Part shown: one piece after another, positions 22,139 through 52,334 of the stretch
Layout: every line of letters begins with the position of its first letter
Numbering within the stretch: position 1 is the stretch's first letter
Source of the DNA: Marispirochaeta sp.
GTDB lineage: Bacteria > Spirochaetota > Spirochaetia > JC444 > Marispirochaetaceae
Direction: 5' to 3'
Assembly: GCA_963676835.2 (NCBI GenBank)
Contig: CAXXFF010000001.1
Coordinates: forward strand, 512,001-576,000
Length of the DNA stretch: 64,000 nucleotides
Translations under genes and position numbers: made by a program
The notes under the pieces: model-generated
Database searches by the model: none
What the model saw: the letters and a program-made list of their open reading frames with translations, nothing else
Told to the model about the DNA's origin: nothing

Positions 22139-25100
22139 CTACTTTGACTGCAGATAGCCGTTCAGAAGATCCAGCGCCTTTTCATACTCAATATCTTCAA
22201 TCTCTTTCTGTATTTCCAGAAAAACCTCTGCATCAGCTGTCCCCTTCATACGCAGTACAAGCTCTTCAACCACATCTCCCGCCCGGGAATCATCCCCCAG
22301 TAAGAGCGCCTTAAGGTCACCTGCAAGATCTGAAATATCCTCTGGAGAGGTTTCAGCCGCTGTATCAGGGGGACTCTCTTCAACAAGATGGTTGTTTATC
22401 TCAGTTACTATGGTATCGAGGATATTCCCAATCTCGTTCAGCAATGCCGCTGTTTGATCCTGTTCGTCACCCTTAAGCAGACTTTCCAACCCCCGGGCCT
22501 TTTCCTGGAGTTCCGAAGCGCCTACGGTACCGGCTATCCCTTTCAGAGTATGGGCAATCCTGACAGCCTCTTCCATCGACCCGGAGTTTATGGCTTCCTG
22601 TATTCTTACGTGTGCTCCCCCCTGATTGGATGCAAACTGCCGCAGCAGCTTTTTATACCTGCCGATATTCCCTCCGGTTCTCTCGATTCCAGAAGAAACG
22701 TTTATTCCCGGAAGAACCGGAATGGAACCATCGGGACTATCAGCGGCTCCATTCCGGCCGGACAGGGAGGCTATATACTCCCCGGGCAGCACTCTTTTCC
22801 CCGGGGTAATCCATTTATACAGCACCGAATAGAGAGCCTCAGGATCAACCGGCTTTGTTACATAATCGTTCATGCCGATCTTCAGCACCTTTTCGGAAAC
22901 ACCACTCATGGCATCAGCAGTCATGGCTATTATGGGAAGATCAGCAAAACGTACATCTTCACGGATCAGTTCGGTTGCAGTATAGCCGTCCATAACCGGC
23001 ATCTGCAGGTCCATAAGCACAAGATCAAAGGATTCACCCTCTGCGGAAGCAAGGACCGCATCAACCGCCTCTTTTCCATCCCTGGCAAGGGATACAACAA
23101 AGCCTTCTCCTTCGAGCAGTTCCGTAGCCACCTGCTGATTAAACTCATTATCTTCAACCAGGAGCAGCCGGGAACCTCTGACCTCATCGAAATTATCCGG
23201 AATAACAATATCAGCTCCCCTTCGGGGGGTCCTTACCGCAACATCGAAGCCGAAAACATCCATAATAGTATTAAAAAGCACCGACGGACTTACCGGTTTT
23301 ACCAGAAACGCATCGATACCAATATCCTCAGCCAGCATCATATACTCTTCCCTGCCATAGCCCGTTACCAGGATCACTTTTGTATATTTTCCCAGTTCAG
23401 GATTGGATTTGATAATTCCCGCGGCCTCAATACCATCCATATCGGGCATACGGAGATCCATCAGCACCAGGGGTATGCGCTTTTCGCCGGCAGAGTCTTC
23501 AAGAATCTCCAGAGCATCCACCGCTGATGTGGCGGTGGTAACCTCAAAACCGAATTCTTTGATAATATTGCGCATGGTACCAAGAGAGTTTTCATCATCA
23601 TCTACAATTAAGACCCTGAGACCTTTCAGATCCAGTCCGGGAGTCGCATACTTTTTATCCTTCCCGGCCTGTTCACTCTGGAGCCTGAATGGAAGTTTTA
23701 CCCAGAATGTACTGCCTTCTCCCGGAGCCGAAATAACACCGATCTCACCCCCCATTAACTCCGACAATTTCTTGCTTATGGCAAGTCCGAGACCGGTCCC
23801 TCCGTATTTTCGGGTTGTGGAGGTATCTGCCTGGGTAAAGGACTGAAAGAGCTTATCCTGCTGCTCCGGAGTCATACCAATACCGGTATCCCGTACACTG
23901 AAGCGGACCAGTACAGATTCTTCGTCTCTTTCAAGAATCTCAGCAGACACCAGAATATCGCCCTCTTTGGTAAACTTAACGGCATTACTACTCAGGTTCA
24001 GAAGGATCTGCCCGAGACGCAGAGGATCACCGATTAAGTAGGCAGGAAAATCCGGGGCAAGATCGAATTTCAGTTCAAGGCCCTTTTCATTGCATTTTAC
24101 CCCGATCATGCCAGCCAGGTTGTCCAGAACATCATCAAAGACAAAAGGCACCGTCTCTATTTCCAGTTTTCCCGCTTCAATCTTACTGAAATCAAGAATA
24201 TCGTTGATGATATTCAGCAATGATTTTGAAGACTGATCTATTTTATTCAGGTAGTCCCGCTGGCGGTGGGTAAGCTCGGTTTTCAGAGCAAGGTGGCTCA
24301 TTCCGATAATCGCATTCATGGGAGTCCGGATTTCGTGACTCATGTTGGCCAGAAAGTCACTTTTTATCCGGTTGGCAGCCTCTGCAGCCTCCTTGGCTTC
24401 CCACAGGGCGGTTTCTCCTTTTTTACGCTCCGTAATATCCTGCAGCCAGCCTAGAACCCCCTCTTCTCCCTCGTAGGTAATGGGAAGAAAGGTAATCAGG
24501 TAGTCCCGGATATCCCGGTTTATGTCTATCAGTTTTATTTCGTGGTTATCCAGCACTCCCGTCTCATGCATCTTCTCAATTACTTCCTGCCTGTCCTCAG
24601 GGTTCTGATATATTTTTATAGCAGGGTCTCCAATATCCAGGCCGAACATTTCGACGAATCTATGGTTGGTAAAGCGGAAAATCCCGTTAAAGGTAAATGC
24701 AACCCCCACAGGAGCATTATTCAGAATAAACTCCAGCTGGTCCCGGGCCCTTTTTATCTCGTTTTCCGCCCGCTTGCTTTCAGTAATATCTTCCAGTGTG
24801 CTGATTACATCATAGGGATAGCCACCTGAATGCACCGGGTTGAACAGTATTCTTAAAAATGCCTTTTTACCTCCGGTAACTGAAATGTACTCACCCTCAA
24901 ATTTGGAATTCTTCCCCGTAAGTGCCGTTGTTAAGGTCTGACGCATCTCCGGATCAACTATCTGCCTGGGAGCATTAAAGCCGAGCAGCTTCTCCATTGG
25001 TGCTCCCAGGTAATCTGCAGCAATGGAGTTACAATTAATAATGGTGCCTTCACTGTTGAAGTGAATAATGCCTATGGGAGAGTTTTCAACAATAATACGC

Positions 25101-27874
25101 AGCTGGGCTTCCCTTACCCGGATTTTTTCCTCATCCTGTTTTCGCCGGGTAATATCTGTAGATAAAACTAAAAGAGCATAGGGCTCTCCCCGGTCATCGC
25201 GAAGAAGCACTTTATTGGTCAGATAGGTATGGGGTGTACCGTCCGGATGAGGCGGCATCTGCCATTCAAAGCGGACATTTTCTCCACTTTCAATAATCTC
25301 CCGGTCCTTCTCCATTATAATACGGGCTGTTTCCTGAGGAAATATCTCGGCATCGGTGAACCCGAGAATCTTCTCCGACGAAAAACCGGTGGCTTGTTCA
25401 AAAAAGCTGTTGACCAGAAGATGCCGACCATCCAGGTCCTTGAGAACCACGGAACTGGGAAGGTTGTCGATAATTACCTGAAGCTGCTGCCGGCCGGCAC
25501 TGAGCTCTTCTTCAATCTTCTTCCGCTCCGTTATATCCTGATGGGAACCGTAGATTGAGGCGGGCGCTCCTTTTTCATTAAAACGAACATGGTAGCGCAC
25601 ATGGGAAATCTGAATTTCCCCGTCTGGAAGAACTACCCGATAGTCCAGCTCCCGTTCATAATCCTCATGTTCCTGATAAGCCTGGCCGATATTTTTTCTC
25701 AACAAGGCCCGGTCATCGGGATGACAAAAACGGCTCAGATACTTATCAACCGCTATTTCAGCGGATCCTTCTCCTTCAATACTGGTTCCAAGCAAATTCC
25801 ACAGCAGAGCGTCAAAAGTAAAGACCATGGAAGACAGATCGAGTTCAAAATAGCCAAGTTTGGATATCTTTGCTGTTTCGATTATGCGCTCTTCATTTCG
25901 TTTTACCGCAACCTCCATCTCCCGCCGCTGGGTGATATCTTCCCGTATGGCCACAAAATGGCTTATCTCTCCGTCGGGTTTTCGCACCGGGGCCAGGGTC
26001 ATAAACTCCCAGAAGGGTTCCCCGTTTTTTCTGTGGTTGCGAAACTCTCCATACCAGGGGTGACCGGCCTGGAGTTCCGCTTTCATAACCTTATAGTAGT
26101 GCTCCGAGATATCACCGTATTTCAGATAACCCGCATCCTGCCCAAGAACTTCAGCTTCTATATAGCCCGTAAGATCTGTGTAGGCAGGATTAACATATTC
26201 AATAGTACCGGTTGCATCGGTTATCATAACCGCCATTGGACTTGCAGCAATGGCCTCGGAAAGCTTGTGCAGCTCCGCCTCCGATTTATATCGCGCAGTT
26301 ACATCCTGAAAACTCCAAACCCGGCCTATTATCTCATTTCCCAGACGCTGGGGCCGGGAATAGCGGTGCAGAATCCTGCCGTCCTTCAGATGAAAAATCG
26401 AAGAGTCTTCTGCCGCCGGCTTGCTGTAGAGATCATTCACTGATTTTATGAATTCATCCTCACCAAGAACCTTTTTGATACAGGCACCCAGCAGCACTTT
26501 ATCCTCACCGCTTTTAGCAAGGGATTCATCTACCTGCCAAATCTCCAGAAAGCGACGGTTATAGGAGCTTATATTCTGGTTTAAATCGACAACAAGAATG
26601 CCGTCGGTGGTGGATTCAAGGGTGGCAGAAAGCCTGGATGTCCGTTCATCAATATTTGCAACCATTCTGTCCAGAGCCAGGGAAAGCTGACCGATTTCAT
26701 CCCGCCGTGCCAATGCTCTCCAGTGATGCCGCTCCCCCCGGGAGACGTCATCTGCCATGGCAATAATTTTTTTGAGGGGACGGGTAAAGGTGGTACCCAT
26801 AAATACCGCAAACAGAACAATACAGGCGGTAAGCATCATGGCCACCACCGCCGCCTGATTCAGCAGGGTAATAACCGGCTGCTCCACTTCAGCTTCATCA
26901 ATCTCCGCAATAATCGCCCAGGTTATTCCTCCGGGAAGGATAAGAGGAGAATAGCTGGTAAGCACCTTATTTCCTCTATAATCAATTATTATGCCGTCAC
27001 CGGAATTCCATTCCAATGCATTTCGAACAGCTTCCGTATCAACACCATTGACCTCAACTGTTCCGGCGAGGGAAGCCTGGACAGAATGGTTATCCGGATC
27101 AAGGTAGGAATCGGTTCTCATGAGCTTATCAGGCCCTACAAGGTAGGTCTCGGCGGTGCCCCCCATACCGGTACGTCCCTGCATAATGCGGTTAAGGCTC
27201 TCAAGATTCAGCTGAACCGCCAGGACAGCAAGTATCTCGCCATTCTCCGACAGAAGAGGAGTACCCATAAACATGGCGGGTACGTTTCCCGAAGGAAGAT
27301 ACAAAGCCATGTCGGACCAGGAAATTCCACCCGACTCTCTCACCGCCTTCCAGACTTTATGAAGACCGCTGTTTTGCATACTGCCCTGGCTTACATCATC
27401 TCCCGGATTTCCTTCCCTGGTTGCTGAATAGAGAAGATGTCCATGCTCCGGACAAAGAAGAAATGCGTTGTAGAAATCATAGGTACTGATAATATATTCA
27501 AGAAATTTTCCATTTTCCCGGTGAATAGTATAGTACTCATCAGACCGGTCAAGAGGTGTTTCCGATCCCAATTCATGGGTTTCAAGAAAGGTGCTTATTT
27601 TAATAAATGTATTGCGTACATCCGTACTGTTTGCCAGAGCTTTAAGATCGCGGGTACAATCCATGAAATAGTCAAGAACCTGTTCTCTTTTTATGGACTT
27701 TACGGCTTTAAGTTTATACAGGGCATCATCAAGCATGTAATTGTCCATCTTCATTAGAAGGACAGTTACAGCAATAAAGAGGGGAATTAACCCGGAAAAG
27801 AGAAAGGCTCCGATCAGCTTGGGCCTGATTTTGATATTCTTAAGTAAAAACCTTTCTATCCCCGACTTTTGCAT
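22139..27874 (-). CDS. Hybrid sensor histidine kinase (Cache-HAMP-multiple PAS-HisKA-HATPase-REC-REC-Hpt)
   Basis: [35 protein letters not shown], two LMDL(R/Q)MP receivers, AHTLKG Hpt; repeated DITERK PAS-C motifs. Confidence 0.93.
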
Positions 27875-42756: not shown

Positions 42757-42782
42757 ATTTACTGACTTTCCCCGAACTTTTC
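42757..42782 (+). repeat. Island boundary direct repeat, left copy
   Basis: ATTTACTGACTTTCCCCGAACTTTTC, identical to 52309-52334. Confidence 0.95.
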
Positions 42783-42963: not shown

Positions 42964-43524
42964 ATGAAGGCTGGAAACCGCGTTCCTGCCGCAGTTAGAA
43001 AACAACGCACCATAACAGGCAGATCGGCTCTTCTCTATGAATACTCACGTTATGTGTATGATCACAGCATTGCCCGCTTCGGCCGGGTCGACCAAAAGGC
43101 TGCCGGTATGCTGTCGACTTCTGTTATTGTCATCGGAGTTGTCTTCGGTCTGGGTTCAGAATGGGTCTATGCGGATTTAACAAACCGCTTATCCACTGCC
43201 TTTTCTCTGCTCTCATGGTTATTTGCAACCGGAATCCTTATATCAGCAGGGATGGCTATCGGCTCAGGAATTGCCGCCCTGAGAATCAGTGAAATTTAAA
43301 CACCGCCTCTCCACGAAGGGGTGCCTGATTACATGCTGGATCAGCCACTTGTAGATTCACACACAGGGGCGGCAACAACCCTGCTTGAGGCAAACATATC
43401 CATTACGGAACAGCTGGACCGCAAAGGACGCAATGTGGAACGGGCTGTTATATGGACAATCGTGCTTATTGCTTTCAGCGCCGCCGCTTTTCTGTCATCT
43501 ATGATCCGTAGTGTGCTGGTTTAG
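42964..43524 (+). pseudogene. 3-TM membrane protein gene interrupted by an in-frame TAA (43297-43299)
   Basis: ORFs 42964-43299 and 43321-43524 share a frame; the intervening codons read ISEI*TPPLHEGV. Confidence 0.6.
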
Positions 43525-43541
43525 AAGGATGCGGGCTCCAG

Positions 43542-43665
43542 CTGCCTTCGACTCCGCTCAAGCACCGCGTCTTAACGGTGAATGCTGCCTTCGACTCCGC
43601 TCAGGCAGCGCTGGTACGACGCGGGGTGAGAAGTCCTACTCTTCATATACCGTAACCATCCCCTC
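43542..43665. repeat. Junction repeat R1 (two TGCCTTCGACTCCGCTCAGGCA-type hairpins + SH3-gene 3' end)
   Basis: Motif copies at 43543-43564 and 43586-43607; homologous to R2 and R3. Confidence 0.9.
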
Positions 43666-44889
43666 GCCTTCGTAACGCAGCTCACCCTGCTCCTCGGCCA
43701 GGTCAAGGAAGGCGCCGAAGCACCAGCCGGAGAGGCCGTCGGATTCCCGGACTATGCGGTACCAGGGGTGTTCGCCCCAGGGGTCGATGGTCTCTTTGGG
43801 GCCGGAGCGGTCAAGGACTTTTACCGTTTCGCCCTGTTCCAGGAAGCCCATGTGTTTTGCCTGGAGGTTGGGTTTTTCGCGGACACGGATGTGGGTGTCG
43901 GTTACTTTGGCGGTGGTTTCTTTGAAGAGGAGGTTGTGGGTCATTAACCAGTCGCGGAGGGGGGTTGCGTCGACCAGGTACGGATGATAGTCATCCCCAC
44001 CAAAACCCCAACGGAAATTCGGTGAAAACCGGAATGTTGAAGGTTTTCCATTGAGAGTTATATTTAATTTGACTGCCTTAGCCGGTTCTCCTATACGCTG
44101 CAGCCAGTAATTTCCATTCTTCTCATTTGGACCACATGGAATAAGAATGTTCTCGTTACCTACAAAATGGCCTCCATAATCTGCATCCGACCAATCGCCA
44201 CCTTCTTCAAATAAAGTTCCATATCCAATTTGTTTCTGGCCTGCGTCTATTTGGTAGATAGAGAAATCCCTGTCTTCTACTTCTGTATCATCATAGTACT
44301 CATCATTCTCATCTTCATCGATCAACAAATACTCTTTATCCGGGGAAATAGCATGCAGAACACCTTCCACAGGGAATGGTTCCCAGGTTTCATCAGCAAA
44401 GTTAACCAGGGCTACTTTACTGGAAAATGTCCCCGCTTCATCAGACATGAACTTACGCATCTGCACATAACCAAAATCATTTTGGTAATAGAGCATATAG
44501 GACATAGGAAATGAAACTCCAGACATTTTATTTTCAGCCATGAAACGTTGTACAAAAGAATATTCATTAGAGCTTTTAGTTGTTACATTATACAATATTC
44601 CCGGAAGTCGTCGTTCCTGTACAATAATAAACTTATCCTCCCAAGGGCATAATAGATAAGTCCCATACGTCGAACCGATAAAAACTCCATTTAAAGTCCG
44701 TAAATCATACAGCTTAAAATCACGTTGATGATTCTCCGGTAAACTTTCCATAACACATAAAAAATCATTCATTAGTACAGATGAATGCAAAACTTTCCCA
44801 ATCTGTTTTACCGGTTTTAGATCTATAGTCTGAGCATATGACATAACCGCACACAACATTCCCATGACAAGTATTATTCTTTTTTTCAT
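43636..44889 (-). CDS. Secreted protein with variable N-terminal region and C-terminal SH3b domain (cassette A; candidate immunity protein)
   Basis: Signal peptide MKKRIILVMGMLCAVMSYA; IRVREKPNL...WYRI...GWCFGAFL. Confidence 0.8.
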   Translation of the reverse strand: MKKRIILVMGMLCAVMSYAQTIDLKPVKQIGKVLHSSVLMNDFLCVMESLPENHQRDFKLYDLRTLNGVFIGSTYGTYLLCPWEDKFIIVQERRLPGILYNVTTKSSNEYSFVQRFMAENKMSGVSFPMSYMLYYQNDFGYVQMRKFMSDEAGTFSSKVALVNFADETWEPFPVEGVLHAISPDKEYLLIDEDENDEYYDDTEVEDRDFSIYQIDAGQKQIGYGTLFEEGGDWSDADYGGHFVGNENILIPCGPNEKNGNYWLQRIGEPAKAVKLNITLNGKPSTFRFSPNFRWGFGGDDYHPYLVDATPLRDWLMTHNLLFKETTAKVTDTHIRVREKPNLQAKHMGFLEQGETVKVLDRSGPKETIDPWGEHPWYRIVRESDGLSGWCFGAFLDLAEEQGELRYEGEGMVTVYEE

Positions 44890-44938
44890 ACTCTTATTCT
44901 CTCCTCAAGTAAGCATACATGTGTGAAAAACTACCAGA

Positions 44939-46612
44939 CTACTGATTATAATACAGATCCGGATCCCATCGATCTTCCTTCAATACGTCGTCATGCAGAA
45001 TTACAGATGAATGATTCTGATTATACTCTTCAATAGCATCCTGGAACCAAAATGGTAGAGAAAGATCATTATTATTATCATTGAAAAAATAGAGCCAACT
45101 ATGCTGAAACGCATATGTATTAATATCTGCAAGCCAGGAATCAGCAACCGTAGTATCTATTTTTGGTTTTTGGGTAATAGTACCTGAAGAATACTCTGTA
45201 CGCTTTTCTTCATAACTTCCATGGCTTCCTACCAGTCTTGCCCACCACCCATAGGTGTCCAGTCTTTCAGTTGCTCCGGTTACATCAGTCTTTGTAAGGG
45301 TATACAGAGAATGATCAAAACACGAAAGAAGATTTACTCGTTCCCATACATTGCTGCCATTCTCAATAAATGATTCATACACTTCCATATGAATATGCGC
45401 CCCGGTTGAACCTTCGCCGAGGTTTCCAACATAACCAATCCGTTCACCTTTTTTAACCGGCAACAGGAAAATCTTGTTGGGATCCTGTTCTTGCCCTACT
45501 ATAGCCTCAAATTGAGTGGCATTTTGTAATGTCCCGTCTGTATAGTGCGATAAATAGGGAAAGTCTTCCTGGATATTTCCTGAATTACCCATATGACAGA
45601 ATAGGTAAACCCGTCCCTGCCGGGGGTCATCCGGCCTTGTTACTAAAACACCTATCCAACCATATATTTGTGATCTGTAAGCTTGCAGAGAGCCTTGTTT
45701 ATTCTTATCCGAACCGTACACAGGCATTTCATTGGCTGTATCCCAATCTACCGACCTCCACAGATAAAACTCACCATCTTCCGGAGCAAGAAAAACCGCT
45801 CTATTGGATTCGGTATTCCAAAATGTTGTTGCATTTTCATCATCAGCATCTGGTATCGTCGGAATAGCCCTTGAACGGCTAATATCCACACCAAGGTGGT
45901 AGTTAATAAAGTGTCCCGTCACCACACCACTGTTTTCAACCACCCTATTACGCCAGCCATTAAGCTGAGTTATTTTAACCCTGTCTGTTCCCGGAAAAAG
46001 CGGCTGGTCTGTTCTGTAAGACAAAGAGGTTGATGGAAGTTCGCGATGGTAATAATTCTTGGGCGTCGAAACACCTTTAACTTTTCCAGAAACCAAATGC
46101 TGTAGAATACTTTTATCGTTTTCCGTTAACGCTTCATCACCAGTTAAATCAGTTGCATCCGGTTCTATTCGGTAGGCTGCCCGCGGCACCTCCGTCTCCG
46201 GCGGATAATAACTCCTCAACTTAACCTTATACTCATCCAGCAACTCCCACCCCGGCTTCTCCCCCGCCGCGCTCAACTCCCCGGTCGCACTCTTCTTCAA
46301 GAGCCTTCGGGCATGGTATTTACCCGGTTCCAGGCTGAAGCCGCCGAAGCCCCCTGCGGGGTTGCCCCAGGTTGCAAGGCTCACCTGACGCAGGCTGCGG
46401 TTTACGGATATAAGGTAGATGCTGTTCATGTAGTCCTGGGTGGTGGCGCTGCTGTCGAGGCCGGCAAAGTTAGTGCGGACAACCACGCCCAGGTGGGTTT
46501 CGCCGGTGTCATTGGTACGCATAATGAGGTCCCCCGGGCAAATTTGGGAGAGGGAGGGGATTATGGTGGTTATGCGTTCGAGTTCCGGCGATACTGGGAC
46601 TGTACTTTTCAT
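44939..46612 (-). CDS. M23-family metallopeptidase with constant N-terminal region (cassette A; candidate toxin)
   Basis: HxxxD (YHLGVD), LAPEDG, VKKGERIGYVGNLGEGSTGAHIH (HxH); no signal peptide. Confidence 0.8.
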   Translation of the reverse strand: MKSTVPVSPELERITTIIPSLSQICPGDLIMRTNDTGETHLGVVVRTNFAGLDSSATTQDYMNSIYLISVNRSLRQVSLATWGNPAGGFGGFSLEPGKYHARRLLKKSATGELSAAGEKPGWELLDEYKVKLRSYYPPETEVPRAAYRIEPDATDLTGDEALTENDKSILQHLVSGKVKGVSTPKNYYHRELPSTSLSYRTDQPLFPGTDRVKITQLNGWRNRVVENSGVVTGHFINYHLGVDISRSRAIPTIPDADDENATTFWNTESNRAVFLAPEDGEFYLWRSVDWDTANEMPVYGSDKNKQGSLQAYRSQIYGWIGVLVTRPDDPRQGRVYLFCHMGNSGNIQEDFPYLSHYTDGTLQNATQFEAIVGQEQDPNKIFLLPVKKGERIGYVGNLGEGSTGAHIHMEVYESFIENGSNVWERVNLLSCFDHSLYTLTKTDVTGATERLDTYGWWARLVGSHGSYEEKRTEYSSGTITQKPKIDTTVADSWLADINTYAFQHSWLYFFNDNNNDLSLPFWFQDAIEEYNQNHSSVILHDDVLKEDRWDPDLYYNQ

Positions 46613-46621
46613 GATGAGAAA

Positions 46622-46630
46622 ATGGTATCA
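46622..46630 (-). promoter_or_regulatory. Extended -10 element of cassette A
   Basis: TGaTACCAT 9 nt before ATG, no SD; same geometry as cassette B. Confidence 0.5.
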
Positions 46631-46823
46631 TGCCTTTTCTATTACTTCCAGTATAAGCAGTTACAATCTTCCAAAACAGGTATGGCCATACAGTTTTAAA
46701 ATAGCAATACGATCGACCTGTATGGGTAAAGCAACAATAAGCGGGAACTGCATGATTCTACCGGGAATCTCTCAACGCATATCCGTCTTGCTCCCGCTTT
46801 CTATAGTGCAGTATACTAAAGGC

Positions 46824-47699
46824 ATGAATAGAAAACGTCCTTTAAACCCAATGGATGATATCTTTGTCAAATATCTTCTGGGAACAGAAGAGAACAAAGA
46901 TCTGCTTATAAGCTTTATCAACGCCGTATTGGATGAAAAAGGATATGACCTCGTTTTGGATGTTGAGATTAAAAACCCCTTCAATCCGGCAAAGATTATT
47001 GAGTCCAAGTTTTCTGTTCTGGATATTAAAGCAAAAGACACCAAAGGCAGAATGATCAACATAGAGGTACAGGTTAGCTCAGACCCCTATTTTGCATCAC
47101 GAAGTCTCTACTACTGGGCAAAGATTTACAGTGATCAACTGGAATCGGGGGATCAATACAGAGAGCTGAATCAGACAATATGCATAAACCTTTTGTCGTT
47201 TAATCTCTTTGAAACCCAGGACAGTTTCCACAGCTGTTTTCAGATAACGGAAGTTGGAAAACCGGAAAATATACTTACAGAAGATCTTCAGATTCATTTT
47301 ATTGAAATAGAAAAACTGAAATCTCATCTGGAAAAACATGAGCCAAGAGATACCCTGGAAGGCTGGTGTTATTACTTCTTAAATGAAGGCCTGATCGAGG
47401 AGGACAAGATGCCCGTTTTACTGAAAAAGGACAAAATATTTAACAAAGCCGGCTCAATATACAGAAACTTTACCGCCGATGAAGAAAAAATGGAGCTTAT
47501 TGAAGCCCGTGAAAAATGGCTTAAGGATTACAATTCCAAAATAGAGTCTGTACGTCAGGAAGGACGTCAGGAAGGTCAGCAAGAAGGACGTCAACAGGGC
47601 CATATGGAAGATGCCAGAAACCTCAAGCAGTTGGGGGTTGATTTGGCGATTATTTCCAAGGCAACGGGGTTGGCCCTTGATGTTATTGAGAAATTGTAA
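46824..47699 (+). CDS. Rpn-family PD-(D/E)XK nuclease
   Basis: DIFVKYLLG, LDIKA, NIEVQ, RSLYYWAKIY, QIHFIE, C-terminal (Q)EGR repeats, IISKATGL; TTGCTC-N18-TATACT 6 nt before ATG 46824. Confidence 0.88.
   Translation: MNRKRPLNPMDDIFVKYLLGTEENKDLLISFINAVLDEKGYDLVLDVEIKNPFNPAKIIESKFSVLDIKAKDTKGRMINIEVQVSSDPYFASRSLYYWAKIYSDQLESGDQYRELNQTICINLLSFNLFETQDSFHSCFQITEVGKPENILTEDLQIHFIEIEKLKSHLEKHEPRDTLEGWCYYFLNEGLIEEDKMPVLLKKDKIFNKAGSIYRNFTADEEKMELIEAREKWLKDYNSKIESVRQEGRQEGQQEGRQQGHMEDARNLKQLGVDLAIISKATGLALDVIEKL
47409..47699 (+). CDS. Putative internally translated small C-terminal protein (RpnS-like antitoxin, 96 aa)
   Basis: GAGGAGG (47397-47403) 5 nt before in-frame ATG 47409. Confidence 0.55.
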   Translation: MPVLLKKDKIFNKAGSIYRNFTADEEKMELIEAREKWLKDYNSKIESVRQEGRQEGQQEGRQQGHMEDARNLKQLGVDLAIISKATGLALDVIEKL

Positions 47700-47716
47700 A
47701 GTTTAGTTGATTAGGA

Positions 47717-47845
47717 CTGCCTTCGACTCCGCTCAGGCACCGCGTCATAAAGGTGAATGCGGACCTGCCTTCGACTCCGCTCAGGCATCGCTGGTATGAC
47801 GCGGGGTGAGGGGCCCTACTCCTCATACACCGTAACCATCCCCTC
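47717..47845. repeat. Junction repeat R2
   Basis: Motif copies 47718-47739 and 47766-47787; outer IR CCGCGTCATA (47740-49)/TATGACGCGG (47795-804). Confidence 0.9.
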
Positions 47846-49075
47846 CCCGTTATACCGCAGCTCACCCTGCTCCTCGGCCAGGTTTAGAAACGCTCCGAAG
47901 CACCAGCCGGAGAGGCCGTCGGATTCCCGGACTATGCGGTACCAGGGGTGTTCGCCCCAGGGGTCGATGGTCTCTTTGGGGCCGGAGCGGTCCAGGACTT
48001 TTACCGTTTCGCCCTGTTCCAGGAAGCCCATGTGTTTTGCCTGGAGGTTGGGGTTTTCGCGGACACGGATGTGGGTGTCGGTTACTTTGGCGGTGGTTTC
48101 TTTGAAGAGGAGGTTGTGCGACATTAGCCAGTTGCGGAGGGGGGTTGCGTCAACAAGTCCGTCGCCATGGTCAGTATCACATAGGCCCCAGCGGAAATCC
48201 GGTGAGAACCGGACATAAACCTGTTCTCCGTCAACAGATATTGTCAGTTTGACAGCCTTATTAGGCTCACCAATTCTTTGCAGATAATAATTACATTCCT
48301 TATTATTAAAACCAGCAGGAATTAAAATGTTTTCATTTCCGGCAAATTGACCACCGTAGTCTTTATCCATCCAGTCCGCATCTGTGTAGTCGCCATATCC
48401 ATTTGCCAGTAAATCTTCATCAAATCTATAGATAGAAAAATCCGAGATATCATCAGAAACTACTCTTTCCCCTTCATCAACATCGATCAATAGGCACTCT
48501 TTGTCCGGTGAGATGGCATGCAGAACACCCCTAACCTGAAAAAAATCAGTCTTCCCGGTACTAATGTTTAATATCCCGATTTTACTGCCCCAAGATCCAC
48601 CTTCCTCTGAAAACATTTTCTGCATTTGAATGTAGTAGATATCATTCTGATACGGCAACAGTGCTTCCACGGGTACTGCACCCCATCTATTTGTGTTCTC
48701 TTTGATGAATTGATCCCCGAGAGGAAAACGTTCGGATGTCTGTGTGGTGAAATCGTAGAGATAGCTTCGAATAGGGTTCAACACAACAACCCAGACTCTA
48801 TTGCCTATTGGACCCGCAAGTGCAGTCAGTCCCTCGTACCCACCGAAGACCTCTTTCTGATCACTTAGTACGAATTGGAAAAGATCTGGTGATGTATCTC
48901 CATTTTCAATTCTTTTTCTTCTATACGCAAAAAATGCTTCGTTTGTAAAGAAAGCGCTATTTACAGATAAATGGTTAAAGGTATCAATACCCTTTAGCTC
49001 TATAGTATCTGCAGTGAGATCAAAGGTAGTAAAAATGAAAATATTTACAATAATTATTTTGATGAGTGTCTTCAT
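47816..49075 (-). CDS. Secreted protein with variable N-terminal region and C-terminal SH3b domain (cassette B; candidate immunity protein)
   Basis: Signal-peptide-like N-terminus; last 113 aa are 108/113 identical to the cassette A paralog. Confidence 0.8.
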   Translation of the reverse strand: MKTLIKIIIVNIFIFTTFDLTADTIELKGIDTFNHLSVNSAFFTNEAFFAYRRKRIENGDTSPDLFQFVLSDQKEVFGGYEGLTALAGPIGNRVWVVVLNPIRSYLYDFTTQTSERFPLGDQFIKENTNRWGAVPVEALLPYQNDIYYIQMQKMFSEEGGSWGSKIGILNISTGKTDFFQVRGVLHAISPDKECLLIDVDEGERVVSDDISDFSIYRFDEDLLANGYGDYTDADWMDKDYGGQFAGNENILIPAGFNNKECNYYLQRIGEPNKAVKLTISVDGEQVYVRFSPDFRWGLCDTDHGDGLVDATPLRNWLMSHNLLFKETTAKVTDTHIRVRENPNLQAKHMGFLEQGETVKVLDRSGPKETIDPWGEHPWYRIVRESDGLSGWCFGAFLNLAEEQGELRYNGEGMVTVYEE

Positions 49076-49105
49076 CCTTCAACTCCATATTTAATAAGCA
49101 CAACA

Positions 49106-50737
49106 TTAATCGAAATACTTTCTTTCATCCCAGCGGTCTTCCTTGAAAAGATCAGTAAACTTGATCGAGGTTCCATTATTTGTATTGAACTCATTAATCT
49201 CTGCAATCAAGTCATCATAAAACTTTATCCATGTTTGGGCATACTCATATGTATCTTCTGTCCCAAACCAGGACCCCAGTACAGTAGTATCAATTAATGG
49301 GTCAATTGACATAGCGGCTGTTAAGACAACACGGGCAGCATCATACTGATTCCAGCGACCTACGACCCGGGACCACCAGCCATAACTATCCAGAAAACCC
49401 GGAATACTGTTCAACCGATAGAGGGAGGTATCAAAACAGGAAAGAGGATCTACTCTTCTCCAAACTTTATCTCCATCCGATCCAAAGGCTTCATACACCT
49501 CCATATGGATGTGTTTCCCAGTCCCTGCGCCCAGAGCACCCACATAGCCTAATCTATCACCCTTTCTAACATTGAGGATAAGACGTTCATTAATGTTTTC
49601 CTCCATACCAGAGATAACATTAAAATCAGTTTGCCCTTCCGGCAAAGTCGGATCTAATGGCCCGTCAATGTAATCCGCAAGTTGCTCGGCATTAAACGGA
49701 ACTTCTGTGGTTGGCTGACCGCTTCCTCCCATATGTGCAAAGAGATATATCCTACCTGACTCAGGATTATCTGGACGGGTTATAAGAATACCCATGTAGC
49801 CGTAACTATAAGAACTGTGAGCCGCAATAGTTCCTTGTTGATTTTTATCGCCAGAATATACCGGGATTTCTCCAGGCGTCCTCCAGCTGTTTGATCGCCA
49901 GATATAAAAAATACCATCCTCCGGAGCAAGGAATACATCTTTCTGTTCATCATTACCCAATGCAGGATCACGGGAAAAATCGACTCCTGTATGGTAGTTA
50001 ACATAGTGGTATATTATATCGTTACCCTCAGTATCTTGTATCGGTTCCCCATCCTCATCTACAACATTATCCTCTCGGTTTCGCCAGCCGGACAACTGAG
50101 TCACCACAGCCCGGTTTCCTATTGGATATAGTCGTTGGTCGGTCCGGTACGAAAAAGAAGTAGTCGGTAGTTCGCGGTGGTAATAATGGTGTTTATATAA
50201 GCCAATCTCACCTGCCACAAGTTTTTTGATAACACTCTCATCGTTTGCCATCAATGCAGCCTCACCAGTTAGGTCAGTTACATCTGGAACTATCTTATGA
50301 GCTTCCCGCGGAACCTCCGTCTCCGGCGGATAATAACTCCTCAATTTAACCTTATACTCATCCAGCAACTCCCACCCCGGCTTCTCCCCCGCCGCGCTCA
50401 GCTCCCCGGTCGCACTCTTCTTCAAGAGCCTTCGGGCATGGTATTTATCCGGTTCCAGGCTGAAGCCGCCAAAGCCCCCTGCGGGGTTGCCCCAGGTTGC
50501 AAGGCTTACCTGACGCAGGCTGCGGTTTACGGATATGAGGTAGATGCTGTTCATGTAGTCCTGTGAGGTGGCGCTGCTGTCGAGGCCGGTAAAGGTGGTG
50601 CGGACAACCACGCCCAGGTGGGTTTCGCCGGTGTCGTTGGTACGCATTATGAGGTCCCCCGGGCGGATTTGGGAAAGGGAGGGGATTATGGTGCTTATGC
50701 GTTCGAGTTCCGGCGATACTGAGACTGTACTTTTCAT
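49106..50737 (-). CDS. M23-family metallopeptidase with constant N-terminal region (cassette B; candidate toxin)
   Basis: YHTGVD, LAPEDG, VRKGDRLGYVGALGAGTGKHIH; first 144 aa are 137/144 identical to the cassette A paralog. Confidence 0.8.
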   Translation of the reverse strand: MKSTVSVSPELERISTIIPSLSQIRPGDLIMRTNDTGETHLGVVVRTTFTGLDSSATSQDYMNSIYLISVNRSLRQVSLATWGNPAGGFGGFSLEPDKYHARRLLKKSATGELSAAGEKPGWELLDEYKVKLRSYYPPETEVPREAHKIVPDVTDLTGEAALMANDESVIKKLVAGEIGLYKHHYYHRELPTTSFSYRTDQRLYPIGNRAVVTQLSGWRNREDNVVDEDGEPIQDTEGNDIIYHYVNYHTGVDFSRDPALGNDEQKDVFLAPEDGIFYIWRSNSWRTPGEIPVYSGDKNQQGTIAAHSSYSYGYMGILITRPDNPESGRIYLFAHMGGSGQPTTEVPFNAEQLADYIDGPLDPTLPEGQTDFNVISGMEENINERLILNVRKGDRLGYVGALGAGTGKHIHMEVYEAFGSDGDKVWRRVDPLSCFDTSLYRLNSIPGFLDSYGWWSRVVGRWNQYDAARVVLTAAMSIDPLIDTTVLGSWFGTEDTYEYAQTWIKFYDDLIAEINEFNTNNGTSIKFTDLFKEDRWDERKYFD

Positions 50738-50746
50738 GATGGGGTG

Positions 50747-50915: not shown

Positions 50916-51137
50916 ATGAACAGCACAATGAAACAGTTGATCATTGCTGAGCTTGATACACTTTCTGACCGTAAAGGCTACTCTCTACTCGATTATCTTC
51001 ATTTTTTGAGAAATGAAGCTGAAGATTATTTACCAAATGATACAACACTAAACTCAATCAAAGAAGTTGAAGACAATAAAAGTACATTAAAATCGTATTC
51101 ATCTTCGGATGAACTCTTTTCAGACTTGGATATATAG
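50916..51137 (+). CDS. Putative antitoxin (DinJ/RelB-like C-terminus)
   Basis: PNDTTLNSIKE...YSSSDELFSDL resembles the DinJ C-terminal motif; directly upstream of the YafQ-like toxin. Confidence 0.65.
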   Translation: MNSTMKQLIIAELDTLSDRKGYSLLDYLHFLRNEAEDYLPNDTTLNSIKEVEDNKSTLKSYSSSDELFSDLDI

Positions 51138-51145
51138 GCCAAGAT

Positions 51146-51433
51146 TTGTACAGGATTACTCCCTCAACTCAATTTAAAAAAGATCTGAAGAAATTGAAAA
51201 AATCGGGCCGAAAACCAAGTGACTTTGATCGAATAAAATGGGTTATAAATCAATTGGCTATCCCTGCGATACTGCCTGAACAATATAAAGATCATGCATT
51301 ATCCGGCAATTTCAATCAGTATCGGGACTGCCATATTTTCCCGGATCTCTTACTCATCTACTACCAGGATGAGGACAATCACCAGTTATTCCTTTACAGA
51401 ATCGGGTCTCATTCAGAATTATTCAGAAAATAG
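51146..51433 (+). CDS. yafQ: YafQ-family mRNA interferase toxin
   Basis: QFKKDLKK, KDHALSG, RDCHIFPDLLLIY, RIGSHSELF. Confidence 0.9.
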   Translation: MYRITPSTQFKKDLKKLKKSGRKPSDFDRIKWVINQLAIPAILPEQYKDHALSGNFNQYRDCHIFPDLLLIYYQDEDNHQLFLYRIGSHSELFRK

Positions 51434-51442
51434 GCAATTGAT

Positions 51443-51577
51443 TGCCTTCGACTACGCTCAGGCACCGCGTCATACAGGTGAATGCTGGCGGGACTGTCTT
51501 CGACTCCGCTCAGGCACCGCTGGTACATCGCGGGGTGAGGGCCCCTACTCCTCATACACCAAAACCATCCCCTCACC
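51443..51577. repeat. Junction repeat R3 with relic 3' end of a third SH3b gene
   Basis: Motif copies 51443-51464 and 51495-51516; 51545-51577 encodes GEGMVLVYEE* on minus strand. Confidence 0.88.
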
Positions 51578-51899
51578 CTTCCTTAATCGCGTCATTCCTC
51601 TCTTGCATTACCGGGAAGGGGATTACATGAATCTCTTTATTCTCAGATTCCCAGAGATCCAGTTTCGCCTGCATCCCCAACCAGCTTTCGGGGCTGGTAT
51701 TTGTTGCCTTTGATATTCGAACTGCCATATCAGGACTTAATGCTATCTTCTCACCAAGGAGTTCAGATAAGTTCTTTCTCGACACTCCCAAATCTTTTGC
51801 GGCTTCTGTTATGGTCAAACCAAGAGGCTTTAATACCTCTTCCTTAAGTAAATATCCGGGATGGGTTGGTTTTCTTCTGCTATTCATGGGTCCCCTCAC
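51573..51899 (-). CDS. higA: HigA-family antitoxin (HTH)
   Basis: PTHPGYLLKEE, LGLTITEAAKDLGVSR, SPDMAVRI, PESWLGMQAKLDLW. Confidence 0.92.
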   Translation of the reverse strand: MRGPMNSRRKPTHPGYLLKEEVLKPLGLTITEAAKDLGVSRKNLSELLGEKIALSPDMAVRISKATNTSPESWLGMQAKLDLWESENKEIHVIPFPVMQERNDAIKEG

Positions 51900-52178
51900 C
51901 TAATGATAATCCCTGTAATCAACGACATATGCATCACCTTTTTCAAAATAGAAAGTGACTCTCCAGTTTCCATTAACCACAACCGACCAGATATCCTTTT
52001 CTTTTCCTGAAAGCTGGTGAAGTCTGAATCCCGGAAGATTCATGTCTTCTACTCTGATTGATGCATCCAATCTATCTAAAATTCTTCCAATCTTTGAAGC
52101 TTGTTCAGGAATGATGCCTTTCTTTGTACCGGTTACAAAATACTGCTCCAAGCCTTTATGTTTGAAAGATTTTATCAT
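51900..52178 (-). CDS. higB: HigB-family toxin
   Basis: MIKSFKHKGL, PGFRLHQLSG, VNGNWRVTF, DYRDYH; toxin-first gene order. Confidence 0.92.
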   Translation of the reverse strand: MIKSFKHKGLEQYFVTGTKKGIIPEQASKIGRILDRLDASIRVEDMNLPGFRLHQLSGKEKDIWSVVVNGNWRVTFYFEKGDAYVVDYRDYH

Positions 52179-52308: not shown

Positions 52309-52334
52309 ATTTACTGACTTTCCCCGAACTTTTC
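52309..52334 (+). repeat. Island boundary direct repeat, right copy (overlaps putative secA -35)
   Basis: Identical to 42757-42782; CTGACT(52314)-N17-TATAGT(52337) precedes secA. Confidence 0.95.

Follow-up and report, generated by a model that had tools for sequence, protein, structure and literature searches.

Polymorphic toxin systems consist of a constant secreted body and a variable C-terminal toxin, follow a toxin-immunity gene order and include stand-alone cassettes with 5′ homology (Zhang et al. 2012, PMC3482391). In Neisseria, the MafB/MafI islands encode carriers with signal peptides, a VSGDF motif at the junction and mafB C-terminal (mafB-CT) cassettes, some with start codons (PMC4287609). 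In Pseudomonas aeruginosa, the peptidoglycan peptidase Tse1 is paired with Tsi1, a periplasmic (partial) beta-propeller inhibitor (PMC3391265), while the Acinetobacter type VI secretion system (T6SS) effectors Tpe4, Tpe18 and Tpe24 are antibacterial M23 effectors with an adjacent immunity gene (PMC6833914). The subject here is a pair of tandem two-gene cassettes, A and B, each joining an M23 peptidase gene to the gene of an SH3b-bearing partner, in a stretch of 64,000 nucleotides (the window) of a Marispirochaeta sp. genome (contig CAXXFF010000001.1, positions 512,001 to 576,000). Both are probably orphan cassettes of toxin tip and immunity gene that belong to a polymorphic peptidoglycan-hydrolase system of spirochaetes and have been retained although the carrier is missing. 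In what follows, the carrier is the large secreted protein, the tip its variable C-terminus, an arm the conserved outer end of a cassette and the core its diverged middle. G000 is the genome of the window (97% complete, 4 contigs) and G002 that of a sister species, a congener (96% complete, 1 contig).

The traits listed for the systems of PMC3482391 are common to the Marispirochaeta cassettes and their carrier family. The difference is that the article describes one crossover at the 3′ tip, whereas in Marispirochaeta the partner gene itself contains a second homology arm and no carrier was found in the genome. In the text of that article, as far as it was available, "M23" has 0 occurrences, and this carrier and the propeller-SH3b partner were not seen. 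The likeness to MafB/MafI lies in carriers with signal peptides, a conserved junction (VSGDF there, PPETEVPR here) and C-terminal cassettes of which some have start codons; the carrier, however, is unrelated, and here the tips are peptidoglycan hydrolases, the partners are periplasmic and the cassettes survive in the absence of a full-length gene. T6SS delivers Tse1, an NlpC/P60 enzyme of one domain, which differs from the present M23 enzyme with its SH3b-bearing partner and putative inhibition. The Acinetobacter effectors are VgrG-linked LysM/M23 proteins without arm-flanked cassettes, SH3 is not mentioned in the accessible part of PMC6833914, and nothing relevant appears in the corresponding parts of PMC12419801 and 10.1101/2025.07.04.663154. 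A literature search found no description of the carrier family or of a propeller-SH3b partner of M23, a search that did not extend to most subscription papers or to the supplementary gene lists of PMC3482391, where these loci might appear. In its logic the arrangement follows the known polymorphic toxin loci that have orphan cassettes. The elements of the two cassettes are as follows.

43542-43977, minus strand: 3′ arm A, the last 113 partner codons (SH3b) and repeats
43636-44889, minus strand: partner A, a putative periplasmic immunity protein with a signal peptide, a beta-propeller (fold taken from paralogue B) and a C-terminal SH3b
43978-46179, minus strand: variable core A, M23 tip and partner propeller, 40% GC
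44939-46612, minus strand: M23 open reading frame (ORF) A, 557 aa, without signal peptide, a 5′-truncated tip of a large carrier family
46180-46616, minus strand: 5′ arm A, holding the C-terminal half of an NlpC/P60 domain without its Cys, then a linker that ends in PPETEVPR
47717-48157, minus strand: 3′ arm B
47816-49075, minus strand: partner B, with a signal peptide, a predicted beta-propeller and SH3b
48158-50304, minus strand: variable core B, 42% GC, its M23 part common to G002 (synonymous divergence, dS, 0.205)
49106-50737, minus strand: M23 ORF B, 543 aa, without signal peptide
50305-50741, minus strand: 5′ arm B

The initial annotation had described near-identical arms around an AT-rich, abruptly bounded core, intact peptidase motifs, and partners with signal peptides and a C-terminal SH3b, and all of this was recovered. 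The 5′ arms are 95.5% identical (46176-46616 and 50301-50741) and the 3′ arms 93.6% (43585-43977 and 47765-48157), with 137/144 and 108/113 residues identical by alignment. GC counts of 17/60 at 44521-44580 and 42/60 at 43681-43740 are exact, and overall the cores have 40-42% GC and the arms 58-60%, a step of about 18 points at the boundaries. These lie at 46180/50305 (5′) and 43977/48157 (3′). At 46180 the identity between A and B drops from 95% to 50%, and at 43977 from 80% to 40%; a shoulder of 65-85% is seen at 46100-46159. HxxxD and HxH are present in both peptidases, the N-termini of the partners are hydrophobic and their SH3_3 domain scores above the Pfam cut-off. Contigs of the best-matching sequencing run, which is possibly the source of the assembly, contain both cores without differences. 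An assembly artefact was ruled out, the cores being recovered as clean contigs and B- and C-type cores being present in G002 as well.

Pfam M23 scores are under the cut-off in both ORFs (19.8 and 18.2 bits vs 28.7). The zinc ligands H249, D253, H409 and H411 (numbering of B) are invariant across a 31-row alignment, and the predicted model of B matches LytM/M23 folds (VIA Z 10.5, root-mean-square deviation 2.7, 131 aligned; Foldseek E 9e-5 to 9e-4). On the strength of these ligands and the predicted fold, the ORFs are assigned to the M23/LytM peptidases despite the Pfam score. Neither has a hydrophobic N-terminus, and no signal peptide was found on them. Both align to the last third of proteins of 1,288-1,733 aa, an alignment by which they are the 3′ third of a large secreted spirochaete protein family.

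As read from their sequences, the carriers of this family are proteins of 1,200-1,900 aa in which a signal peptide and an NlpC/P60 domain lacking its Cys precede a tip that varies (NlpC/P60, M23 and a few others). A profile search with the 5′ arm returned 125 representatives (clusters at 50% identity), 64 of them at least 1,100 aa long, and a hydrophobic N-terminus is present in 54 of these 64. The Cys is kept in 1/79 relatives that have the motif just upstream of the arm. Model residues 6-106 resemble, with modest scores (VIA Z 4.2-5.4), the second half of NlpC/P60 domains, those of Tse1 and MepS among them, and Atlas features agree with this identity as a lead only. On sequence and model, the 5′ arm is the second half of an inactive (Cys-less) NlpC/P60 domain and not a complete peptidase domain. 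Among 103 tails of at least 80 aa after the arm, clustering gave groups of 65 and 32 (M23) and 6 singletons, 23 further arm proteins being too short after the arm for tip classing. M23 motifs are found in most members of the group of 32, while re-clustering on the last 210 aa (n = 56) separated 50 members with NlpC/P60-like Cys and His motifs from 6 different ones. The tip of P0114 has a weak TNT match and is neither M23 nor NlpC/P60-like; those of P0070, P0075, P0042 and P0049 are also of neither kind and have no Pfam family. A PDB sequence search with an orphan NlpC-type tip gave nothing useful.

Members of the arm family with a named source are from Spirochaetales or Spirochaetia. The arm has a match in 15/401 Spirochaetia genomes, G000 included, and in 1/5 congeners; weak matches were also seen in G041 and at G386:C1:11493. 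A search for related loci found 1 locus in genomes and 1 in metagenomes. Carriers often stand right behind a very large or Rhs-like gene (L022:1-9207, L055:1-3288, L064:2-3628 and L015:3-1031), and the genes that precede them have a similar C-terminal region and could be delivery partners.

The partners follow the type of tip. An SH3b gene comes next in 7/7 readable M23 carrier or tip loci (G158, three in G062, G312, G013 and L022), an eighth locus (G133) being cut before the next gene and standing outside this count, compared with 0/9 NlpC/P60-type carriers, the partners of NlpC/P60 tips being of about 325 aa. SH3b genes also follow M23 tips on one Rhs-type and one other toxin-like ORF (G127 and G386), and in G130 a carrier, a partner, an orphan tip and a partner form one array. 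In G044, of a different family, an orphan M23 tip and its SH3b partner (L065:9555-11428) lie beside gspD, the position of the second locus described below. Two SH3b partner genes stand in tandem at L071:2-2156 (G133), resembling a poly-immunity stretch. Prediction of the complex between M23 B (146-543) and partner B (24-419) scored 0.00 in two runs made without folded controls and speaks neither for nor against binding.

Four cores are present at two loci in G000. The second locus, about 270 kb away beside a gene that is presumably gspD of type II secretion, holds cores C and D, two more SH3b remnants and more small modules. A block of 2,048 bp (5′ arm, Rpn gene, repeats and 3′ arm) is 95.5% identical between the two loci. 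At the second locus M23 D is frameshifted, M23 C has lost more of its 5′ end, and an insertion sequence (IS) element interrupts partner C. Around it (G000:C1:819000-834700; L001 and L002), several small toxin-antitoxin-like pairs, a Sir2 gene and an IS element were seen, and this IS element is also present at the Rhs locus of G000. In G002, C-type and B-type cassettes with a YafQ module between them occupy the gspD locus. A fifth core, found in the protein set, begins right after the same PPETEVPR, and all five core types switch at this junction. In the sequencing runs compared (4 of the 11 listed, small-share runs being left aside), the B-type core occurs in two, and in one the contigs show loose ends that fall precisely on 43977 and 46180. 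Other core alleles between the same arms, which the initial annotation would have needed, thus exist as C and D in G000, the fifth core and these loose ends.

Divergence differs sharply between arms and cores. The 3′ arm has 94-97% DNA identity across six copies in two species, and arm dS is 0.05-0.26 in most pairs, with the 5′ arm of the sister's B-type cassette as an outlier (about 0.4), whereas cores of different type approach saturation at synonymous sites. With the arms of A, C and D the 5′ arm of B shares 96-97% identity, and with the sister's B-type arm 86%; the M23 part of B has 91% protein identity to the sister's B-type core. Between G000 and the sister, in small samples from this single species pair, dS is 0.205 for core B and 0.32 for core C, while secA and six neighbouring genes have 0.74-1.40. 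This contrast points to transfer of cores B and C after the two species had separated. Judged by these divergences, recombination in the cassettes is real, because arms of low dS surround saturated cores and cores B and C are closer to the sister than the neighbouring genes are. The conflict also bears out the separate histories of arms and cores.

The initial annotation further held that hydrolase and inhibitor are exchangeable as a unit. This part was given up: partner B and the sister's B-type partner share 46% identity over residues 1-70, 91% over 71-170, 55% over 171-284 and 96% in the SH3b arm, next to near-identical M23 cores, and the C-type partner pair is patchy likewise. The partner genes are mosaic, and strict exchange as a unit was rejected.

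These results suggest the following scheme. As the sequences show, other Spirochaetia encode a large putative toxin in which a signal peptide, a body that stays constant and an NlpC/P60 domain without its Cys lead up to a variable tip; where the tip is M23, a propeller-SH3b gene follows. By analogy with Tse1/Tsi1, the propeller of the partner would block the M23 active site and the SH3b would hold the partner at the wall. The cassettes of the genus retain the last half of the inactive NlpC/P60 domain, which forms the 5′ arm, and the SH3b end, which forms the 3′ arm. Through these arms homologous recombination moves cores among loci and species, as the incongruent divergence shows, and further patchy exchange takes place within the partner. 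The likeliest working output in G000 would be periplasmic immunity proteins and a reservoir of tips, because the carrier was not found and the M23 ORFs have no export signal. It is probable, to the same degree as the orphan-cassette reading itself, that the cassettes form a reservoir and immunity library supplied by carriers of unsampled strains.

The toxin-immunity interpretation of the initial annotation gains support from the class-wide coupling of specific partners to tips, but the cassettes are not complete systems, with 5′-truncated tips, no signal peptide and no carrier found. Several observations weigh against it. No carrier was found in G000 with five carrier queries or in G002 with one full carrier query, and the carrier N-terminus was not found in five congeners, in a search without a positive control genome. 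Without a resident carrier, the cassettes have nothing local to recombine into. The closest long relatives are 27-38% identical, with none above 38%. The NlpC/P60 assignment is weak in Pfam (E 0.002-0.004, under the cut-off, for two orphan tips, and 0/33 full proteins). Propeller-SH3b homologues occur without an M23 neighbour in 7/12 other-genome loci examined (G363, G276, G324, G306, G330, G243 and G373), so the partner family is not solely one of immunity proteins. The patchy variation of the partners without matching M23 change weakens strict cognate co-evolution, small samples and base composition may account for part of the low dS, and purifying selection on truncated ORFs with a common start appears to suit expressed proteins better than silent cassettes. 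The family has the carriers, partners and cassettes of polymorphic toxin systems, whereas no resident full-length toxin was found in G000; for this reason the locus is not filed as a complete system. Among the stand-alone propeller-SH3b genes, those of L066, L067 and L070 have a conserved neighbourhood in one family, next to a gene taken to be nitroreductase-like.

The strongest rival, itself rather unlikely, is that the truncated M23 ORFs have been domesticated as stand-alone bacteriolysins, expressed from a near-leaderless promoter, harmless in the cytoplasm and released without a signal peptide, by lysis or another route. All five intact 5′ ends in the two species (5/5) share the start Met behind a TGnTAnnAT-9 nt-ATG motif, although they are not independent, A and D being identical there. 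The ratio of nonsynonymous to synonymous divergence (dN/dS) lies at 0.23-0.26 where cores are shared and for the most part at 0.1-0.25 in arms, and stays below 1 even in M23 codons 1-80 (0.44 at dS 0.58, B vs sister). Pieces in three other runs begin at or near the same point, with no carrier read-through among the matches listed, and the catalytic residues are intact. On the other hand, no export route was identified, and promoter and terminator scans gave no excess over shuffles (18 promoters vs 17.5) and flagged none of the extended -10-like sites before the M23 starts, leaving the motif as a lead only. The damage to M23 D, M23 C and partner C at the second locus also argues against functional bacteriolysins, and selection possibly dates from a time when the arms were part of carriers in strains not sampled here. 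That the arms serve an autonomous, carrier-free exchange of such cassettes is comparably doubtful. In its fullest form, tentative to the same degree, this account would have carrier-derived tips now self-expressed as signal-less M23 bacteriolysins and passed between species by way of two arms, of which the second is the SH3b of the partner, with propeller-SH3b proteins as a new class of M23 inhibitors.

Less probable still is a pair unrelated to conflict, in which an M23 wall-remodelling enzyme and an SH3b-anchored regulator or activator were diversified by gene conversion under phage or other surface selection. M23 and SH3b proteins are frequent parts of wall remodelling, and stand-alone propeller-SH3b homologues do exist; the patchy range (15/401 Spirochaetia genomes and 1/5 congeners), the islands with toxin-antitoxin, IS and Rhs genes, the polymorphism of tip types with orphan arrays and the missing signal peptides of the M23 ORFs speak against it. 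Finally, a simple tandem duplication without exchange, after which constraint preserved the arms while everything else drifted, agrees with arms that coincide with domains at dN/dS below 1, but was rejected as highly improbable, being contradicted by synonymous sites near-identical in arms and saturated in cores, by the GC steps of about 18 points and by the conflicting relationships of arms and cores.

The orphan cassettes lie in an island of about 9.55 kb upstream of secA, with an exact 26-bp direct repeat at each edge and the following other features.

42757-42782, no strand: left 26-bp direct repeat, exact copy at 52309-52334, 2 copies genome-wide
42964-43299, plus strand: 111-aa ORF at the left end of the island, no Pfam family above the cut-off
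43540-43628, no strand: 22-nt repeat pair 3′ of partner A
46824-47699, plus strand: Rpn-type PD-(D/E)XK nuclease gene between cassettes A and B
47715-47808, no strand: 22-nt repeat pair 3′ of partner B
50916-51137, plus strand: small ORF before yafQ, probably an antitoxin, by position only and with no family scan
51146-51433, plus strand: YafQ-family toxin of a type II toxin-antitoxin pair, by Pfam scan
51440-51580, minus strand: third repeat pair and a remnant of about 40 bp of the 3′ end of a partner gene
51573-52178, minus strand: HigB-like toxin and helix-turn-helix antitoxin pair, by Pfam scan
52309-52334, no strand: right 26-bp direct repeat, upstream of secA and overlapping a promoter-like site

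Of these features, the Rpn gene, the third 3′-arm remnant, the two toxin-antitoxin modules and the 26-bp repeat had no place in the initial annotation, nor had the second locus and the missing signal peptide of the M23 ORFs. The genes that flank the island are adjacent to each other in 4/5 congeners. The fifth, G002, has the first approximately 770 bp of the island in common, including the 111-aa ORF at the same site (dS 0.88), followed by different cargo with an SpvB/FG-GAP fragment and IS pieces. Joints in the sequencing runs were accepted at 85% likeness, at which other organisms or repeats are possible as the source, and those of the empty site (34-letter side) are a hint only. The SpvB/FG-GAP N-terminal fragment of G002 lies at L018:3853-8168 in the secA site, and several Rhs core fragments lie at L014:9000-15000 in the gspD site; because G002 has these fragments there, both sites are seen to collect toxin cargo. 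Elsewhere in G000, a full-length Rhs gene (a frame of 3,357 codons), after which come immunity-like genes, IS elements and an orphan Rhs tip (C3:665000-684000; L077), forms a separate polymorphic toxin locus.

The only two Rpn genes in G000 are placed one per cassette locus. In G360 (L057:3708-4571), a divergent Rpn gene upstream of a 5′-truncated carrier recalls the Rpn-M23 layout of the window. The 22-nt repeat, presumably REP-like (repetitive extragenic palindromic), has 13 genome copies, every one at the two cassette loci, and its pairs show no significant folding against shuffled sequences (z -1.65 to 0.38). By its sequence, the segment at 51440-51580 is a scar left by a lost cassette. 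A link between a Y1 transposase and the repeats was unsupported, its single copy in G000 being on a different contig. No tRNA attachment (att) site is present, because tRNA and Rfam scans of the window gave no matches. As for an integron cassette array, no integrase-like ORF was noticed beside either locus in ORF listings, no integrase family search having been made, and no RNA run was among the sequencing-run matches listed. Further off in the window, at 22139-27874, an ORF of 1,911 aa resembles a very long chemoreceptor-type membrane protein.

Little has been described of the weapons that free-living spirochaetes use against other bacteria. The present locus leads to a sizeable carrier family (125 clusters at 50% identity) whose tips are of peptidoglycan-hydrolase type and whose partners depend on the tip, and it makes natural cognate and non-cognate M23-partner pairs available for the study of protein inhibitors of M23 peptidases. 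It also raises the question of why headless tips are under purifying selection and traded between species with no carrier present.

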